Shown: one piece after another, positions 1,864 to 44,248 of the stretch
Position numbering within the stretch: the stretch's first letter is position 1
Layout: the number at the start of each line of letters is the position of its first letter
From: Acidobacteriota bacterium
GTDB taxonomy: Bacteria > Acidobacteriota > Blastocatellia > RBC074
DNA length: 53,884 nt
Assembly (NCBI GenBank): GCA_022614735.1
Contig: JAKEHZ010000041.1
Location: 1-53,884, forward strand
Reading direction: 5' to 3'
Position numbers and translations under genes: made by a program
The notes under the pieces: model-generated
Seen by the model: only the letters and a program-made list of their open reading frames with translations
What the model was told of the DNA's origin: nothing
The model's database searches: none

Positions 1864-1981
1864 GTGATTGCGGACTTATGATTGCGGATTGCGGATTGCG
1901 GATTGCGGATTGATTGCGGGAAACTTCTCTTCAAATCCGCAATCCGCAATCCGCAATCCGCAATCATTAGTCCGCGATCAC
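1864..1981. repeat. Family A hairpin: (GATTGCG)n heptamer arms with a GTGATYGCGGACTWATG outer stem
   Basis: Arms ~1864-1911 and 1933-1981 have 2 mismatches. The element fills the whole fabG-acpP spacer, and the right arm contains the fabG stop codon (1978-1980). Confidence 0.9.
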
Positions 1982-2721
1982 ATATACATACCACCGTTTA
2001 CATTTATTACCTGGCCCGTAATATAGCCTGCCTCATCTGAGGCGAGAAATGCAACCGCATAGGCTATGTCAAGATCTGTCCCTGGACGTTTCAACGGGAT
2101 CTGCTCGAGCATTGCATTGCGTGCCGTTTCGTTCAAAGCCGACGTCATCGGTGTCTCGATGAAACCCGGAGCAATGGCATTGACCGTGATGTTGCGCGAA
2201 GCGTATTCGCGCGCGACTGCTTTTGTGAATCCGATGATGCCCGCTTTTGCCGAGATGTAATTCACCTGGCCGACATTGCCTGACTGGGCGACGACCGAAG
2301 TCAGATTAATAATGCGGCCGCGACGGGCTTTGGTCATCATCGGCAATACCTGCTGGGTCAGCAGGAAAACCCCCGTCAGATTGGTATTGATCACATCAGA
2401 CCAATCCTCTCGCTTCATGCGTAACATCAATCCATCGCGCGTAATGGCTGCGTTGTTGACCAGGATACTAACCGCACCGAGCTCAGATGAGACCTTTTCA
2501 ACGGCGGCCTTGATCTCATCAGCATTGGCCAGATCGCCACGTACCGCCACCGCGCGACGACCCCCTGCTCGTATTTCATCAGCAACGGCTTCACATTTAT
2601 CCAGCGAACGAGCCATCACTGCGACATCGGCGCCAAACTCGGATAAGACCTTAGCCGTGGCCCGACCGATACCTCGCGAGCCGCCGGTCACCAGCGCGAT
2701 TTGTCCTTTAAGATTAAACAT
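1978..2721 (-). CDS. fabG: 3-oxoacyl-ACP reductase (SDR)
   Basis: TGGSRGIG cofactor motif, NYISAKAG (YxxxK), position in the fab cluster. Confidence 0.93.
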   Translation of the reverse strand: MFNLKGQIALVTGGSRGIGRATAKVLSEFGADVAVMARSLDKCEAVADEIRAGGRRAVAVRGDLANADEIKAAVEKVSSELGAVSILVNNAAITRDGLMLRMKREDWSDVINTNLTGVFLLTQQVLPMMTKARRGRIINLTSVVAQSGNVGQVNYISAKAGIIGFTKAVAREYASRNITVNAIAPGFIETPMTSALNETARNAMLEQIPLKRPGTDLDIAYAVAFLASDEAGYITGQVINVNGGMYM

Positions 2722-2725
2722 ATTT

Positions 2726-2829
2726 GATTGCGGACTACTGATTGCGGATTGCGGACTGCGGATTGCGGATTTAATAGGAACTTCCTTCTAAATCCGCAAT
2801 CCGCAATCCGCAATCCGCAATCCGCAATC
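2726..2829. repeat. Family A hairpin (imperfect) between fabD and fabG
   Basis: Left arm 2726-2772 is GATTGCGGACTACTGATTGCGG(ATTGCGG/ACTGCGG)n. Right arm 2790-2829 is AAATCCGC(AATCCGC)n. The fabD reading frame runs through the right arm and loop. Confidence 0.9.
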
Positions 2830-3715
2830 CCACGTCCTTCCCTGATTCTCTGGCGATTGCCTTGACCAGACCGGTCAACACTTTACCCGGACCAACTTCA
2901 ACAAAAGTATCAACGCCCTGGTCGAGCATATACATGACGCTTTCGGCCCAACGCACTGGCGCAGAAATCTGGCGAATGAGTGCTCCGCGGGCTTGCGCGC
3001 CGGCAGTCACGAACTCCGCATCTACGTTGTTAATAATAGGGAATGAGAGATCATTGAAAGTCGTTGCTTCAAGTAATTCTGCCATTTTCTCCTGCACCGG
3101 CAACATCAAAGCCGAATGGAATGGCGCGCTGACTTTGAGCATTATCACACGCTTTGCGCCTCGCGTTTTGCATTCCTCAACTGCGCGTTCGACAGCTTCC
3201 TTATGCCCGGCGATAACAATCTGTGTCTGCGAATTGAAATTGGCCGGTGCACAAATTTGATCTCGAGCAGCAGCGGCGCAAGCTTCGGAAACTCTGCTGG
3301 CATCAATTCCCAGGACCGCAGCCATGGCGCCGGTGCCAAGAGGCACAGCCTCCTGCATCAATTCGCCTCGGCGACGTACCAGGCGGACCGCATCGCTCAA
3401 ACTCAGAGCCCCGGCGGCGACCAGTGCAGAGTACTCACCCAAACTATGGCCGGCAACGAAATCAGGGTTAATGCCTCTTTCAGACAGCAAGCGATAAGCT
3501 GCAACCGATACAGCCAGGATAGCTGGTTGCGTACTGGCAGTGAGTTGTAGAGTCTCTTCCGGGCCATTGAAGCAGAGGCTGCTCAAACTAAAGCCAAGCG
3601 CACGATCCGCTTCGTCAAAAACTGCGTGAGCGGCTGGAAATGCCTGGGCCAGCTCTCGCCCCATACCGGCGTGTTGTGAACCCTGACCGGGGAAGATGAA
3701 TGCGGTTTTACCCAT
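2771..3715 (-). CDS. fabD: Malonyl-CoA:ACP transacylase; the last ~19 codons are encoded by the family A repeat
   Basis: GHSLGEYSAL active site, GQGSQ, GPGKVLTGL. The C-terminal [19 protein letters not shown] is translated from AATCCGC repeats. Confidence 0.92.
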   Translation of the reverse strand: MGKTAFIFPGQGSQHAGMGRELAQAFPAAHAVFDEADRALGFSLSSLCFNGPEETLQLTASTQPAILAVSVAAYRLLSERGINPDFVAGHSLGEYSALVAAGALSLSDAVRLVRRRGELMQEAVPLGTGAMAAVLGIDASRVSEACAAAARDQICAPANFNSQTQIVIAGHKEAVERAVEECKTRGAKRVIMLKVSAPFHSALMLPVQEKMAELLEATTFNDLSFPIINNVDAEFVTAGAQARGALIRQISAPVRWAESVMYMLDQGVDTFVEVGPGKVLTGLVKAIARESGKDVGLRIADCGLRIADLEGSSY

Positions 3716-3721
3716 AGACTA

Positions 3722-4747
3722 TCAACTGATCACCGCCATCCGACCGAGTTCGCTCTCGATACGTTCGCTCAATTTGCCTTTGTAAAACTCTTTGGCGACG
3801 CGGATAGCGTTCCGGATCGCTTTAGCGTTAGAGCTGCCGTGGCATATCACGCAGATCTGCTTGCAACCCAGCAGCGGCGCGCCGCCGAACTCCGAATAAT
3901 CAAGGCGCTTTTTGACGCTGCGGAATGCATTAAGCGATAGCATCGCTCCGATCTGCGTCAGGATTGTCTGCCCGAGCTCAGTCTTGAGCAGACCCATAAT
4001 CGCTTCAACCAGGCCCTCGCTCGTTTTCAAGATGACATTGCCTGTGAAGCCATCAGAGACTATCACGTCGACATCGCCGGTGAAGATGTCGCGCCCTTCG
4101 ACATTGCCGATAAAGTTAATGGGCGCCGCCTTCATGAGATTCAGAGTCTCTCTGGTCAATTCGTTCCCTTTGACATCCTCTTCGCCGATGCTCATCAAGC
4201 CGACATTTGGGTTGCGCACGCCGAGGATCGATCGCGAGTAGATTGAACCCATAATCGCGAACTGTTTGAGATGCTCGGGCTTGCATTCGGCATTTGCCCC
4301 GACATCGAGCAGAACAGTGCCAACTCCTTTGAGCGTGGGGAAGATGCCTGCGAGAGCCGGTCGGTCGACCGAGGGAAGAGTGCCAAGCATGAGTTTGGCC
4401 GTCGCCATGACGGCGCCCGTATTGCCCGCGCTCACCAGACCGTGCGCCTTTCCTTCGCGTACCAGTCTGGCTGCCACACGAATTGAGGAATCTCGTTTAC
4501 GACGCACAGCTTGCGCCACCGGATCATCCATAGTGATGATTTCTCTCGCATCGATGATTTCGATATGGAGGCGTTGTTTGCGTGGATTGGGCACGCCTTG
4601 ATGTTCCAACTCAGCGCGAATGCGTTCTTCCTGCCCGACAAGAAGAATGCGTGCGCGCAGATCGTGTGCAGCCTGAATGGCGCCTTCAACCTCGATGGCG
4701 GGGGCATTATCCCCACCCATTGCATCAACTGCAATTGTGGTGAGCAT
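3722..4747 (-). CDS. plsX: Phosphate acyltransferase
   Basis: Full-length PlsX-like sequence ([15 protein letters not shown]). It sits between rpmF and fabD. Confidence 0.92.
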
Positions 4748-4752
4748 TGGAC

Positions 4753-4817
4753 AAGGATGAAGGATGAGGGATGAGGGATGGTGGTGGGATGTGCCACAAG
4801 ATCATATCCTCATCCCC
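4753..4817. repeat. Heptamer tract (AAGGATG AAGGATG AGGGATG AGGGATG GTGGTGG) with a short complementary partner ATCCTCATCCCC
   Basis: Tandem 7-mers at 4753-4787 lie 6 nt upstream of the plsX start. The partial partner is at 4806-4817 in the rpmF-plsX spacer. Confidence 0.7.
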
Positions 4818-4830
4818 GAATTTGATGAGC

Positions 4831-5010
4831 TTATAGCCCTTTTTCAATCACTATGCGCCCGTGATAAAAACCGCAGGACACGCAAACACGATGTGGAAGT
4901 TTCATCGAGCCGCAATTCGGGCAGGCAATCAGGTTGACGCGCTTAAGCGCGTCATGTGATCGCCGCTTTCGGCTGCGCGATTTTGAATGACGTCTTTTAG
5001 GATTTGGCAT
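4831..5010 (-). CDS. rpmF: 50S ribosomal protein L32
   Basis: [19 protein letters not shown]... with a CPNCG...CVSCG zinc ribbon. ATG 5010 is preceded by GGGAG. The longer track ORF (to 5142) is read-through of the hairpin. Confidence 0.93.
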
Positions 5011-5044
5011 GGTTAATCTCCCAATAAAAATAATTGCAGTATTT

Positions 5045-5145
5045 TGAATGCGGACTACTGATTGCGGAATGCGGATTTGATAATGAAAGTTTCTCTTAAA
5101 TCCGCAATCCGCAATCCGCAATCCGCAATCAGTAGTCCGCATTCA
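5045..5145. repeat. Family A hairpin with unequal arms (left arm two heptamer units shorter than the right)
   Basis: Left arm 5045-5078 is TGAATGCGGACTACTGATTGCGGAATGCGGATTT. Right arm 5098-5145 is AAATCCGC(AATCCGC)3AATCAGTAGTCCGCATTCA. The right arm includes the stop codon of the DUF177 gene (5143-5145). Confidence 0.9.
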
Positions 5146-5610
5146 ACAGTCACATTGCTCAACATTCAAGTCTGCGCCGCACTGCGTGCATAACCCCCGG
5201 CAGTCTTCACGGCAGAGCACGCGGCTGGGCAGGTTCAGTTCCAATTGCTCGAGCACCATCTCATCGAGATTGATCTCATCGTTCTCGTACATAGCGAAGT
5301 CAAGATCACGAGAGTTTAACTCGATTTCGCCTGTTCTGCTTTCGCCTGTATCCTCAGGGGTATAGAAGAGATCGACTGGAATCTCGAAGTTCAGAGGTAC
5401 TTGGTTCAAACAACGATCACAAGGAGCCACAAGCAAAGCTTTAATATTGCCGCGTAGCCGCATATCCATACCCGCGCGATCCACGCGTCCGGTCACCAGA
5501 GGCGGTTCCTGCAACTCAAACTCAAAATTGCCGGTATCGAGTTCGCCTGCCTGATATTGATGCTTGAAACGGAGCCCGTCAACAGGCAAGCGCACTAGCG
5601 AGATAATCAT
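5143..5610 (-). CDS. yceD: YceD/DUF177 family protein (large-subunit rRNA accumulation protein)
   Basis: Conserved position upstream of rpmF-plsX. Cys pairs (CDRC ... CREDCRGLCTQCG). ATG 5610 is preceded by GAGGGAAAG. Confidence 0.8.
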   Translation of the reverse strand: MIISLVRLPVDGLRFKHQYQAGELDTGNFEFELQEPPLVTGRVDRAGMDMRLRGNIKALLVAPCDRCLNQVPLNFEIPVDLFYTPEDTGESRTGEIELNSRDLDFAMYENDEINLDEMVLEQLELNLPSRVLCREDCRGLCTQCGADLNVEQCDC

Positions 5611-5780
5611 CTTTCCCTCGGTGCTGGCAAAGTGACTAATTATATTTGGGGTCAAATGTTTGTCAACCTGTGTGAACGGGGCTACGTACCAACCGCGTAC
5701 TCATCCCGGTTCTACGACACGGTTAACTGAAGACTGTGCAAATTAAATTTGGTTGTTATCAACAAAAACAGGCTTATCGA

Positions 5781-5902
5781 GAAAGCGGATTCACCGCCGA
5801 GGCGCAGAGATCGCAGAGGAAGCGCAGAGTGCTCACATGAACTCCCGTTAACTCTCTGCGTCTCCTCTGCGATCTCTGCGCCTCGGCGGTGAATCCGCTT
5901 TC
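5781..5902. repeat. Locus-specific hairpin: 39-bp perfect outer arms with an inner GCGCAGAG ~10-nt tandem section
   Basis: 5781-5819 is the exact reverse complement of 5864-5902. The inner part (CGCAGAG units) pairs imperfectly. It lies ~50 nt 3' of the MFS gene stop. Confidence 0.88.
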
Positions 5903-5952: not shown

Positions 5953-7278
5953 TTAACTGATCTCCTGGGGTTCATCGAGAGGCGTGACCGGATCAATGAA
6001 TATCCAGCAAAATGCCCCCAGAAAATATATGGCGGCGGAGATGTAGAACGTGATTGCCCAATTTTGATTGGTCGCCAGAAGGATGTAACCCACCGCTAAC
6101 GGTCCGAACGCGCCGCCAAGATTTCCCATCATATTCATGCTGCCCGACAGAGTGCCGGCATACTTGCCACCGACGTCCATGCAGGCGCTCCAGCTCGGCG
6201 GCATGACGAGATCGTTGGAGAAGCTGGCCAGTCCCATGGCGACCATCGCCCACAACGGATCCGCGATATTGACCGAGAGTACCAGACACGACGAAGCACC
6301 GAAGAAGCCTATCCCGGAGAGCCAGCGACGCACGGCTCTGACATTGCCGGTCCGGTGTTCCAGGTAGGTCGAGAGATAGCCGCAGAAGATCGACCCCAGC
6401 CCGCCGAAAAAGAGGGGCAGGATGGCCAGTAGCGCGCCCTTCGTCATTGACACGCCTCGCGCTTCTTGCAGATAGGTCGGTAACCAGGTGATATAGAAAT
6501 ACCAGCCGTAAGCCAAACATATATACTGCGCCCAGAGCAACCAGACCGTCTTGGATTGCAGAAACCTCCTCCACGGGACCGGCCCGTGAGAGGCGATCAC
6601 AGTTTCGGCCGGCGGCAGTATCGCTTTCTCTGCTTGGTTGAGGCTGGGATGTTCACGCGGATTGTCACGGTACCATCGGAAAAAGAAGATCGCCCAGATC
6701 ACGCCGATCCAGCCGAAAATTTCGAACGCACGCCGCCAGGAGAGGTGATTGAGTATGAGCGCTACCAGGAGCGGGGTAAACGCGCCGCCCCAGCGCGCCG
6801 AGAGCCACATAATGCCTTGCGCTCGCACTCGCTCAGACTTCGGCAGCCAGGTCGTGAAAGCCCTCGTGAGGTTGGGGAAACAACCCGCCTCACCTGCGCC
6901 AAACAAAAAGCGCGTCACCAGCAGTGAAGTAAGATTCCAGACCCAACCCGTAGCGGCGGTGAAGAACGACCACATGAGGACGACGCGCATCAACACCTTG
7001 CGCGCGCCATAGCGGTCACCCATCCAGCCGCCGGGAATCTCAAACAGAGCATAAGCGAGGCCGAAGGCAAAAAAGGCCCATCCCATCTGATCCTTCGTCA
7101 GCCCCAAATCTCGACTGATAAATGGAGCTGCCTGCGAAATGCAGACGCGATCGATGTAAGTGATAACTGCCAGTGTGATGGCGAAGAAAATAACCCAGTA
7201 GCGTGCGCGAGTGGGTTGGTCGAGCGCTGTTTCAACTGTTGATGGTTGAATTACTTTTTCGGCGATCTGTTGTTCCAT
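5953..7278 (-). CDS. MFS transporter (anion:cation symporter / hexuronate-galactonate-like)
   Basis: Multiple predicted TM segments, MGDRYGARKV loop motif. ATG 7278 is preceded by GGAAGGTG (the track starts at GTG 7284). Confidence 0.8.
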   Translation of the reverse strand: MEQQIAEKVIQPSTVETALDQPTRARYWVIFFAITLAVITYIDRVCISQAAPFISRDLGLTKDQMGWAFFAFGLAYALFEIPGGWMGDRYGARKVLMRVVLMWSFFTAATGWVWNLTSLLVTRFLFGAGEAGCFPNLTRAFTTWLPKSERVRAQGIMWLSARWGGAFTPLLVALILNHLSWRRAFEIFGWIGVIWAIFFFRWYRDNPREHPSLNQAEKAILPPAETVIASHGPVPWRRFLQSKTVWLLWAQYICLAYGWYFYITWLPTYLQEARGVSMTKGALLAILPLFFGGLGSIFCGYLSTYLEHRTGNVRAVRRWLSGIGFFGASSCLVLSVNIADPLWAMVAMGLASFSNDLVMPPSWSACMDVGGKYAGTLSGSMNMMGNLGGAFGPLAVGYILLATNQNWAITFYISAAIYFLGAFCWIFIDPVTPLDEPQEIS

Positions 7279-18936: not shown

Positions 18937-19024
18937 TGGTGCATCCGGTAAATTCATATCATCTTTTTGAGCCCGCGCGTTAGCGCGGGCTCAAAAAGAT
19001 GATATGAATTTACCGGATGCACCA
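18937..19024. repeat. Locus-specific perfect hairpin: 42-bp stem, GTTA loop
   Basis: 18937-18978 is the exact reverse complement of 18983-19024. GC-rich apex GAGCCCGCGC/GCGCGGGCTC. It lies 31 nt 3' of the stop of the 19056 gene. Confidence 0.92.
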
Positions 19025-22258: not shown

Positions 22259-22292
22259 ATCTACCTTATTACCCTGATGTCGGGGCACATTT

Positions 22293-22443
22293 TCAAAGCT
22301 AGGTTACAGATCGTGAGGCAAGGTGGAATACAAAAATGGCAAAAAGAGCAAAAAAGGCAAAGGGGCCTAGAAATTTTGCCTTTTTTGCTCTTTTTGCCAT
22401 TTTTGTATTCCACCTTGCCTCACGATCTGTAACCTAGCTTTGA
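22293..22443. repeat. Locus-specific perfect hairpin: 69-bp arms, 13-nt loop, inner arm of GCAAAAA(G/A)N 9-nt units
   Basis: 22293-22361 is the exact reverse complement of 22375-22443. It ends 1 nt before the TonB-receptor stop codon (22445-22447) and fills most of the spacer. Confidence 0.93.
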
Positions 22444-22444
22444 A

Positions 22445-25651: not shown

Positions 25652-25855
25652 TGTTGAAATCCTGAGAGTCAGATTTTGAGAGTGAAGGGACCAGGTGATT
25701 ACCAAAACCTAATGAGAGCGTGGCCCACAATCACTTATGAATTCTAACAATCGCATACTTTGGTTGCAATTTGGACGATTGACATGGGATAGTACGCCGC
25801 GTTTTGACTGCTGGTTTCTGAAACGTTCGACAAACATCGAGTACATCAGGTGCTG

Positions 25856-26164
25856 ATGAAGCGGCTATTGCTCGTTCTGACAGTTCTCGCACTTTACATT
25901 CTGCATCAGGATTTCTGGTTCTGGCGCAGAATAACTCCACTGGTCTTCGGCTTCTTGCCAATCGGGCTTTTTTATCATGTTTGTTACACCCTTGCTGTGT
26001 CACTGCTCATGTGGCTCCTGGTCAAGTACACCTGGCCTTCCTACCTTGAAGAGAGTGCGGGAGAGTTGTGGAGCAGGAGAGCGGAGGAAGAAAGAGATTC
26101 CGCCGGTCCTCCTAATCCGCAACCCGCAATCCGCAATCCGCAATCGGAGGGCCCGCACTCGTGA
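25856..26164 (+). CDS. DUF3311-like small membrane protein preceding the SSS symporter, with a repeat-encoded C-terminal extension
   Basis: Two-TM, Trp-rich small protein (HQDFWFWRR). The stop overlaps the symporter GTG start (GTGA). The tail [15 protein letters not shown] is translated from AATCCGC units. Confidence 0.65.
26114..26145. repeat. Solo family A arm AATCCGCAACCCGC(AATCCGC)2AATC with no complementary partner nearby
   Basis: Read from the sequence. I saw no GATTGCGG run within several hundred bp. Confidence 0.85.
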
Positions 26165-30660: not shown

Positions 30661-30753
30661 AGAGAAAACGGAACAAACGGAAATAACGGAACAAACGGAA
30701 AATCGTTGAAAATTTCCGTTTGTTCCGTTATTTCCGTTTGTTCCGTTTTCTCT
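30661..30753. repeat. Family B hairpin: 41-bp perfect arms of ACGGAACAA/ACGGAAATA 9-mers
   Basis: 30661-30701 is the exact reverse complement of 30713-30753. It lies 17 nt 3' of the nucleoside-transporter stop. Confidence 0.92.
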
Positions 30754-38332: not shown

Positions 38333-38427
38333 GGTGCGCCCGCGTCCTCGCGGGCAGGTTGCGGAAAGACGCATTTCCAAGGAAAAGGGCTACTTGTCAA
38401 GCCTGCCCGCGAGGGCGCGGGCGCACC
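38333..38427. repeat. Family C element, copy 1: two inverted 26-bp GC-rich arms, each self-palindromic, around a 43-nt spacer
   Basis: GGTGCGCCCGCGTCCTCGCGGGCAGG (38333-38358) pairs with CCTGCCCGCGAGGGCGCGGGCGCACC (38402-38427) with 1 mismatch. Each arm contains GCCCGCG-NNNN-CGCGGGC. It lies 7 nt 3' of the TonB receptor stop. Confidence 0.9.
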
Positions 38428-44105: not shown

Positions 44106-44248
44106 GTTTTCAGTTGTAACTACTCAGCCGGTGGTGCAGTACGGGGAGCGTCAGCGACCTGAGCCTCGATAAAATGGCCTCTTGCCGAGGTGCAGGTCGC
44201 TGACGCTCCCCGTACTGCACCACCGGCTGAGTAGTTACAACTGAAAAC
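44106..44248. repeat. Locus-specific perfect hairpin: 56-bp arms, 31-nt loop; the left flank carries extra CAGTTTT heptamers
   Basis: 44106-44161 is the exact reverse complement of 44193-44248. It ends 3 nt before the isomerase stop codon (44252-44254). The loop has its own CCTCG/CGAGG stem. Confidence 0.93.

Follow-up and report, generated by a model that had tools for sequence, protein, structure and literature searches.

The first 6 kb of contig JAKEHZ010000041.1, from a soil Blastocatellia bacterium (Acidobacteriota), raises a question concerning operon architecture: what are the long hairpins that fill the spacers between essential genes of its fab/rpmF cluster, and does the cell use them, tolerate them, or host them as mobile elements? 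The stretch of DNA analysed here, referred to as the window, is 53,884 nucleotides (nt) in length (54 kb) and contains 46 open reading frames (ORFs), with gene identities assigned via NCBIfam and Pfam. The hairpins in question, E1, E2, and E3, are copies of a single family (Family A) located at the fabG-acpP, fabD-fabG, and yceD-rpmF spacers, respectively. Our preferred answer, which we hold at a probability of roughly 0.6, is that Family A consists of lineage-specific palindromic heptamer microsatellites, which are driven by replication slippage, co-transcribed with the operon, and tolerated by the cell. For comparison, we used the orthologous clusters of the sister locus L107, which is an independent assembly, and of nine further loci (PlsX identity 72-92%; 82-92% for the ones used).

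Three heptamer hairpins inside one operon

A Family A copy is composed of two convergent GATTGCG arrays, with a few diverged units, arranged around a short purine-rich centre. Tandem Repeats Finder resolves every arm of E1-E3 as a period-7 array of 4.3-6.6 copies, and the complementarity of the arms is 88-97% overall. The E1 arm reads GTGAT(T/C)GCG-GACT(T/A)AT-(GATTGCG)4. Unit counts differ between arms, as the initial annotation of this DNA had noticed, with 6.6 imperfect versus 5.7 perfect units in E2 and 4.3 versus 6.1 units in E3, and the variant heptamers it listed, ACTGCGG and AATGCGG, are likewise found in the window. Allowing up to one mismatch, the window contains ATTGCGGATTGCGG 20 times (0.08 expected); allowing up to three, it contains the terminus GCGGACTACTGATTGCGG 16 times (0.02 expected). 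The loops of E1, E2, and E3 can be aligned as well (GGATTT-GAAGAGAAG-TTYC). Since both the arms and the loops are homologous, these are three copies of one family rather than look-alikes, which agrees with the initial view that one hairpin family fills three consecutive spacers of the cluster. The separate outer stem described at the same time must be given up, as GACTACT is a diverged 7-nt unit lying in register (GATTGCG-GACTACT-GATTGCG-...) and is absent from the fabD-side arm of E2. On the messenger RNA (mRNA) strand, the predicted folding energies are -86 kcal/mol for E1 (z -13.4), -84.3 for E2 (z -16.9), and -61.6 for E3 (z -11.4). A search of the window against Rfam 15 returned no match at the gathering score; the sub-threshold matches were all to eukaryotic microRNA-precursor models and are generic long hairpins.

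The tally for Family A is three full copies and one partial copy in the 54 kb, plus one further true copy from a metagenome scan for the exact terminus. A sodium:solute symporter gene has a fourth array, with a single arm (Table 1), directly 5' of its Shine-Dalgarno sequence and its GTG start; this is a further instance of an array located in a gene tail just 5' of the next start codon. The DUF3311 ORF in question (25850-26164) has its tail extended by ~38 residues, carries (AATCCGC)4, and overlaps the symporter GTG start. In the rpmF-plsX spacer there is another heptamer tract, as was first reported, in which AAGGATG occurs four times (4753-4780; Tandem Repeats Finder).

It is most probable that all three hairpins are transcribed as part of one operon. 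A sigma-70-type consensus promoter is located 5' of yceD, and the same TTGACA...TATAAT sequence precedes yceD in three of the related clusters (L109, L111, and L112). At E1-E3, the minus strand contains no other good promoter match and no terminator-like site, while the RNA flanks 3' of the three stems (CACUUUUGGAGG, AAAUAUG, and AAAAUACUG) contain no U-tract. A role as intrinsic (Rho-independent) terminators is rejected for E1-E3 on the same grounds. Because a consensus promoter precedes yceD and neither a promoter-like nor a terminator-like site occurs at the elements, we infer that this promoter starts a single yceD-rpmF-plsX-fabD-fabG-acpP-fabF transcript carrying E3, E2, and E1. Within the cluster, fabD follows directly after plsX (3716-3721), and fabH is not part of it, either here or in the ten relatives (loci L108-L124).

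The hairpins have eroded the ends of the genes that they follow. The fabG and yceD stop codons are covered by arms, as initially annotated: the fabG TGA sits in the E1 terminus GTGATC and the yceD TGA in the E3 terminus TTGAAT. E2 has the position originally given to it between fabD and fabG, but one point needs correction. There is no fabD stop ahead of E2, and the fabD frame crosses the entire 5' arm (2791-2830) to reach a TAA where the loop gives way to the 3' arm; the native stop is missing. Among the ten related clusters, FabD ends in ...GKEV(R/K)L(F/L)NVEDxxSL..., a tail that is missing here. Similarly, the YceD of relatives ends in ...C(D/N)CxxPVDPRWQALADLKEK, whereas the YceD encoded here stops at ...EQCDC, without xxPVDPRWQALADLKEK. 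In total, ~20 conserved C-terminal residues are lost in FabD and ~17 in YceD, and the elements begin in their place. Two separate checks are in line with this: the Pfam YceD profile is covered only at positions 1-103 of 119, and FabD aligns with E. coli FabD (1MLA, 309 residues) only from residue 3 to residue 289. Loss of the FabD tail is probably tolerable, since shorter homologues without it have solved structures (e.g. DisD, 281-286 residues). The tail of the L107 FabD differs from that in the window, as it is frameshifted by the loss of an E2 unit, and the YceD of L108 is also truncated, in this case by (GTTGATA)n (L108 2700-2740). In L116, (CTCAAAT)3 supplies the last fabD codons (4960-5000). 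The arrays evidently have a cost, which includes the C-terminal tails of two proteins and a FabD reading frame that changes between populations. They are also a hazard for annotation, as they yield spurious C-terminal extensions, shifted stops, and short-read assembly breaks at the hairpins.

The start signals downstream of the hairpins have been spared. E1 stops 14 nt short of the acpP ATG, leaving its GGAGG Shine-Dalgarno sequence free, and the Shine-Dalgarno sequences of both rpmF and acpP lie outside the stems with opening energies the same as those of the relatives. The distance from the 3' arm of E2 to the fabG ATG is only 4 nt (2722-2725), in agreement with the initial annotation, which further placed the fabG ribosome-binding region inside a ~45-bp stem. 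No fabG Shine-Dalgarno sequence is present in any of the ten clusters, and we therefore give the cost of opening as the ensemble free energy needed to unpair positions -18 to +13 of the start. This amounts to 11.0 kcal/mol in the window, compared with 6.2 in L107, 5.9-9.4 in element-free relatives, and 16.7 in L117. Two features keep the predicted cost low: at the odd unit the stem bulges by 7 nt, and the repeats allow the arms to pair anew in a displaced register. To free the fabG start, only 10 bp at the outer end, beside the bulge, have to be opened. These energies lend no support to a deep burial, and the claim was overstated: by this model, the fabG start region is only modestly sequestered. 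The fabD frame passes through the 5' arm of E2 in all three variants seen, which is automatic, since (GATTGCG)n contains no stop in any frame. As a result, ribosomes completing fabD would have to open up E2, so that initiation at fabG would be coupled to the translation of fabD and fabG translation would probably depend upon it. A degree of caution is warranted, as the start signals of the downstream essential genes are spared, so even large stems need not affect expression strongly.

Table 1. Positions of the fab/rpmF genes, the promoter, and the heptamer arrays in the window
Feature	Position	Strand	Assignment or description
fabF	168-1445	minus	NCBIfam
acpP	1610-1849	minus	NCBIfam
E1, fabG-acpP spacer	1864-1981	minus	arms 1864-1911 and 1934-1981, 48 nt, 96% complementary
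fabG	1978-2721	minus	NCBIfam; ATG 2719-2721, stop TGA 1978-1980
E2, fabD-fabG spacer	2726-2830	minus	arms ~2726-2771 and 2791-2830
fabD	2771-3715	minus	NCBIfam; stop TAA 2771-2773
plsX	3722-4747	minus	NCBIfam
Second heptamer family (GGATGAR)n, rpmF-plsX spacer	4753-4817	minus	decayed weak hairpin, -22.4 kcal/mol, z -1.8
rpmF	4831-5010	minus	NCBIfam
E3, yceD-rpmF spacer	5044-5146	minus	arms 5044-5077 and 5113-5146, 34 nt, 97% complementary
yceD	5143-~5610	minus	Pfam; stop TGA 5143-5145
Sigma-70-type consensus promoter	5639-5666	minus	TTGACA-16-TATAAT, 12/12 matches; 5' of yceD
Fourth, single-arm array (ATTGCGG)4	26114-26145	minus	no inverted partner; C-terminal extension of small DUF3311 ORF

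Unit turnover among related fab clusters

When examining the related clusters, it is evident that the hairpins come and go while the genes stay in place. The gene order yceD-rpmF-plsX-fabD-fabG-acpP-fabF is kept in all ten, yet most have short, unstructured yceD-rpmF and fabD-fabG spacers (L109, L111, L112, L120, and L122 among them), a result at odds with the initial suggestion that the elements are used. Family A occupies all three spacers in just one other lineage (L117) and the fabG-acpP spacer alone in two (L116 and L120). It is missing in five lineages, while a sixth, L112, retains only a short remnant. A GATTGCG-type hairpin begins at the fabG stop in the window, L116, L117, and L120, which together with L108 form one clade with ~84-85% identity over three proteins. 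Within this clade, GATTGCG forms the outer stems in L117 at the three spacers occupied in the window, in all three around an inner part of (GAGCGGG)n; L116 has a third array, (CAGCAAT)n, nested in the loop; and the spacers of L108 contain (ATTTTGA)n, (CAGTTTT)n, (GATGCTG)n, and (GTTGATA)n. Across the relatives, orthologous spacers hold other heptamer hairpins (CAGTTTT, ATTTTGA, GATGCTG, TCGATAG, or GAGCGGG), some of them nested, or none at all. Copies within a genome are uniform, as is true of the three Family A copies in the window and the three GATTGCG plus GAGCGGG composites in L117. At the filled sites, 31-88 nt of spacer and coding DNA have been replaced, and the boundaries of these sites differ between the window and L117. 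The second family, (GGATGAR)n, is orthologous at rpmF-plsX and ranges from ~1.5 units per arm in the window to ~3 in L116 and ~10 in L117.

Comparisons between near-identical populations reveal the manner in which these hypervariable arrays change. Over 5.87 kb, L107 and the window differ at 15 alignment columns, eight of them in E2, six in the inverted loop of a terminal palindrome, and one a coding single-nucleotide polymorphism; the L107 copy of E2 has one 7-nt unit fewer and one substituted unit. One GGATGAG unit has been gained or lost between L117 and L118, and all five differences between L117 and L119 across 2,263 nt lie inside the GGATGAG array. Where two populations are nearly identical, they are separated by changes of entire units and by substitutions that stay inside the arrays, and the opposite arm does not change to compensate. 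The ten clusters and four near-identical population pairs provide a natural series of whole-unit change, nesting, and array exchange at fixed positions.

The same comparison makes it hardly credible that the hairpins are assembly artefacts, such as fold-back chimeras or collapsed repeats. One structure does invite this explanation, the perfect palindrome at the start of the contig (1-209, with 100-nt arms), which resembles a fold-back: its inner arm takes in the final 42 coding nucleotides of fabF (GGTNAALLFKRYEK and stop), and both assemblies have a contig end there, with the L107 contig terminating in the same palindrome 7 nt further out, its loop inverted and without the outer boundary. The outer part of this palindrome probably arose as a fold-back during assembly, at a shorter hairpin that really exists 3' of fabF. 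E1-E3, however, are internal to the contig and are reproduced by the independent L107 assembly, which differs among them only in E2. Furthermore, six other lineages, which come from other projects, carry hairpins at these spacers that are homologous or analogous to them.

Slippage, mobility, and regulation

Based upon these features, several steps can be proposed for the origin of the hairpins as tolerated microsatellites. Replication slippage would generate the arrays, and the gain, loss, and homogenisation of units are as would be expected of it. Templated repair within the palindrome might partly even out arm imbalances, and local duplication or gene conversion could keep copies in the same operon alike. 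The hairpins would presumably grow until they meet sequence protected by selection, i.e. translation start signals or indispensable coding sequence, and growth up to such limits would account for entire spacers being filled, for hairpins starting at or on stop codons, and for the FabD and YceD tails being overrun. In the operon mRNA, the elements would form RNA helices of 35-48 bp, with cleavage by a double-strand-specific RNase (e.g. RNase III) and segment-specific mRNA stability as the likely consequences. Effects of the stems on RNA processing or stability are plausible. Effects of this kind, including translational coupling, would be by-products tolerated by the cell, with the fabG-acpP position as a possible exception.

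Several observations weigh against this proposal. Firstly, a 22-nt terminus, which includes the odd unit GACTACT, is common to the three copies along with the loop, for which slippage alone is insufficient. This shared terminus and loop, and an extra copy in the metagenomic locus L113, require copying between sites, which keeps a trans-mobilised element alive as a rival. Secondly, a GATTGCG-type hairpin has been kept at the fabG stop across ~15% protein divergence, which could mean a selected structure. Thirdly, the 5' arm contains more G than C in 22 of the 28 hairpins from the window and loci L108-L120 (binomial p=0.004; the families are not independent), hinting at a transcript or single-stranded-DNA constraint. 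Because a palindrome reads alike on both strands, this polarity is the same for either direction of transcription.

[quoted passage not shown] The argument for mobility is that several copies share the terminus GATTGCGGACTACTGATTGCGG and a homologous loop, and that a metagenome scan for the exact 20-nt terminus, which returned three loci, contained one true Family A hairpin (L113) in an unrelated gene context, where it takes up the spacer, from a stop codon to a point 5 nt short of the following start codon. Other families in the window are scattered over tens of kb as well (AAACGGAAC at 30661, 46803, and 51623; GGTGCGCCCGCG at 38333 and 53131). We nonetheless consider mobility unlikely. The insertion sites lack target-site duplications (flanks AAAA/ATAT, ATTT/CACG, and TATT/ACAG), there are no terminal repeats separate from the array, and orthologue boundaries differ, such that the filled sites are replacements with deletion rather than clean insertions. 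No transposase domain is encoded by any of the 46 ORFs, nor is there a RAYT in the 54-kb window. The three full copies also lie within 3.3 kb of each other (p ~0.02 for random placement among hairpin-bearing spacers). The reverse complement of the odd unit does contain GTAG, the tag of many REPs (PMC3733652), but membership in the GTAG-tagged REPs fails: CAGTAGTC is found in E2 and E3, whereas both E1 arms lack GTAG and have CATAAGT and CATTAGT instead, and the relatives lack it too, with the variable positions of GACTNNT being free (TT, GC, GA, TC, and others).

The second and third points could instead be taken as signs that the hairpins are selected regulatory RNA punctuation, serving as partial terminators or attenuators, RNase III sites, or 3'/5' protective stems that set separate levels for yceD, rpmF-plsX-fabD, fabG, and acpP-fabF. 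The 7-nt period might then match the footprint of a protein that covers 6-7 nt, a cold-shock-domain protein for instance. E. coli REP elements are known to stabilise upstream mRNA and to lower translation when located less than ~15 nt from a stop codon, and the Correia hairpins of Neisseria are RNase III substrates that alter mRNA stability. Hairpins in the window are strongly biased to sites downstream of genes, being present in 15 of the 16 spacers of more than 100 nt whose flanking genes are co-directional or convergent, versus one of the four divergent ones (Fisher p=0.013), and 7 of 14 start within 7 nt of a stop codon. A free Shine-Dalgarno sequence with an unchanged opening energy at rpmF and acpP and the G-richer 5' arms fit such a role, as does the presence of some hairpin between fabG and acpP in 10/10 related clusters, with energies from -18 to -109 kcal/mol. 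We still regard regulation as a doubtful explanation of Family A as a whole, given that E1-E3 have neither a U-tract nor a terminator-like match, sequence and unit number are unconserved, changes in one arm are uncompensated in the other, most relatives manage with the same gene order and unstructured spacers, and the elements have removed conserved protein tails. Since unrelated heptamers occur at the same sites, a sequence-specific binding factor is also disfavoured. A selected role is credible only for the presence of some hairpin at fabG-acpP, which may be selected.

The earlier interpretation, which held the elements to be tolerated or used and not merely parasitic, is partly supported. 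Tolerance is borne out, as the hairpins are part of one probable transcript and are reproduced in L107, and as the GATTGCG-type hairpin at the fabG stop is shared by four lineages; use is not, as element-free relatives keep the gene order, units vary without compensation, and the FabD and YceD tails have been deleted. A bolder conjecture, and something of a long shot, is that "palindromic microsatellites" able to expand by themselves make up a class found across the Blastocatellia, need no transposase, and act as real operon punctuation. If so, hairpins of 7-10-nt units would arise and grow in nearly every co-directional spacer, nest, homogenise, and erode 3' ends, while the 7-nt register and the G-rich-first polarity would reflect a periodic single-strand-binding protein (e.g. 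a cold-shock-domain protein) or the avoidance of Rho loading.

Known relatives of the arrays and other repeats in the window

Inverted heptamer arrays have already been noted in Xanthomonas and Geobacter, without an established mechanism or function, and Family A adds a further example of this poorly understood kind. The closest known match is the GGGAATC inverted pairs of Xanthomonas, described together with the GGGGA(C/T)T repeats of Nostoc as heptameric simple-sequence repeats (Rehm et al. 2015, PMC4692102). Each Xanthomonas genome contains 70-75 convergent array pairs capable of forming stem-loops, which are transcribed and have no known function; the repeats are enriched between co-directional and depleted between divergent ORFs, are often <50 bp from a stop, and recur at orthologous sites in related species, where their length and sequence differ (PMC4692102). 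E1-E3 likewise consist of two convergent arrays with at least two tandem 7-nt units per arm, are located between co-directional genes on or at stop codons, and vary in unit number between close relatives at a retained position (L107, L116, L117, L118, and L120). They are distinct in their Acidobacteriota host, in the many unrelated heptamer and nonamer families found in one genome, in the nesting of arrays, and in the overrunning of gene 3' ends. Formation of G-quadruplexes, as argued for GGG and GGGG units, is not applicable to Family A, because GATTGCG offers only GG every 7 nt rather than at least three G per unit; quadruplex potential defines a subclass and not the architecture. The paired sites of Geobacter metallireducens are also close. 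These "putative global regulator binding sites" of classes 1-3 (Aklujkar et al. 2009, PMC2700814) are multicopy intergenic pairs on opposite strands, each with 3-5 tandem 7-9-nt repeats (GTTGCTYN, TCTCCGTS(Y), or MTYCTGA), variable spacing, and unknown function, speculatively DNA sites for integration host factor (IHF) or HU (PMC2700814). Some of them accompany insertion sequences at a fixed distance, unlike the arrays in the window, where no such association is seen.

The resemblance to other palindromic repeats is less complete. REP/BIME and REPIN sequences, known from E. coli and Pseudomonas, are abundant extragenic palindromes with hundreds of copies in a genome, mostly located between co-directional or convergent genes and co-transcribed with them, and a REPIN comprises two inverted REPs in a ~100-nt hairpin. 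However, REPs are imperfect palindromes of 20-40 nt with a GTAG/CGTC head, no internal tandem period, and a link to RAYTs, whereas the arms of Family A are tandem arrays. Correia elements, Rickettsia palindromic elements, and other MITEs are similarly hairpin repeats of ~100-150 bp inside operons, and some such repeats lengthen host ORFs at the 3' end or are fused to them there (Delihas 2011, PMC3184786). MITEs possess terminal inverted repeats and target-site duplications and leave clean filled and empty sites; in contrast, no direct repeat flanks any Family A copy, and its sites are replacements with shifting boundaries, as described above. Lastly, the TAACTGA heptamers of Beggiatoaceae, cyanobacteria, and Bacteroidetes are intergenic repeats of 2-43 copies spread over several phyla, often just 5' of start codons, including those of ribosomal-protein operons, with a post-transcriptional role proposed but not shown (MacGregor 2015, PMC4679880). 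They comprise 169 direct sets versus a single inverted one (PMC4679880), whereas E1-E3 are inverted pairs, and only the array at 26114-26145 resembles the TAACTGA arrangement. A literature search for the array sequence itself yielded no match, and searching the REP and hairpin surveys turned up nothing on Blastocatellia.

Heptamer arrays of many sequences are simply common and generic. Among the long simple repeats of bacteria, heptamers are described as the most frequent (Mrazek 2007, as cited in PMC4679880). A scan of a genome collection for GCGGACTNNTGATTGCGGA found real adjoining arrays at ~14 of 106 loci among the matches listed, with an estimated ~70 chance matches expected, and among these listed matches GATTGCG arrays occur in several phyla. 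Viral contigs contained 58 three-unit stretches of ATTGCGG, compared with 12 and 49 for two shuffled-composition controls, 23 for GGATGAG, and 3 for GGGAATC. As shuffled heptamers also form such viral arrays, the idea of the GATTGCG array as a special cross-phylum element is rejected. A predicted viral contig (L162) contains seven (GATTGCG)n arrays, all on one strand and with as many as eight perfect units (3203-3260, 4555-4720, and 7147-7190). The motif GAAGAGAAATA... follows three of these, and two of the three then continue ...TAAATTC-ATG, directly 5' of start codons. Hairpin forms of viral GATTGCG arrays are found in L127, L129, L145, L152, and L174. The purine-rich centre GAAGAGAAG is an unsafe basis for homology with phage arrays, since GATTGAA is only one or two changes from GATTGCG.

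Within the window, E1-E3 belong to a set of ~17 long hairpins whose arms reach at least 18 nt, nearly all of them between co-directional or convergent genes, and inverted 12-mer pairs number 28 versus 0.45 in shuffles. In most of these hairpins the arms are built of 7-10-nt tandem units, namely GATTGCG, CAGTTTT, TCATTTG, AAACGGAAC, ACAGGATTT, CAAAAAAGG, CGCCAAGAG, and CACGGATTGA. In the AAACGGAAC family, an 18-nt unit (AACGGAACAAACGGAAAT) made of two 9-mers forms three hairpins (30661-30753, 46803-46905, and 51623-51700), each downstream of genes and with arms of 26-43 nt that are 98-100% complementary. The GGTGCGCCCGCG family (GGTGCGCCCGCGTCCTCGCGGGCAGG...) is G+C-rich and without tandem periodicity (38333-38427 and 53131-53224), and its first copy overlaps the predicted start of a histidine-kinase ORF. 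Five long hairpins are unique (22292-22444, 44106-44248, 10907-11036, 18937-19024, and 5781-5902), with arms of 42-70 nt that are 91-100% complementary; three of them start 0-3 nt past a stop codon, and several contain tandem tracts of CAAAAAAGG, CAGTTTT, or CACGGATTGA. One of the G+C-rich hairpins precedes a MazE/MazF (PemK) toxin-antitoxin pair (52471-53046). Finally, the divergent spacer between rtcR, encoding a sigma-54 activator, and rtcB contains a perfect 24-nt direct repeat, TATAGACTGTCGTCGCAATGATCT, in 1.9 copies (12826-12871), which may be the RtcR binding site of the rtcB-(SPFH)-rtcA operon.

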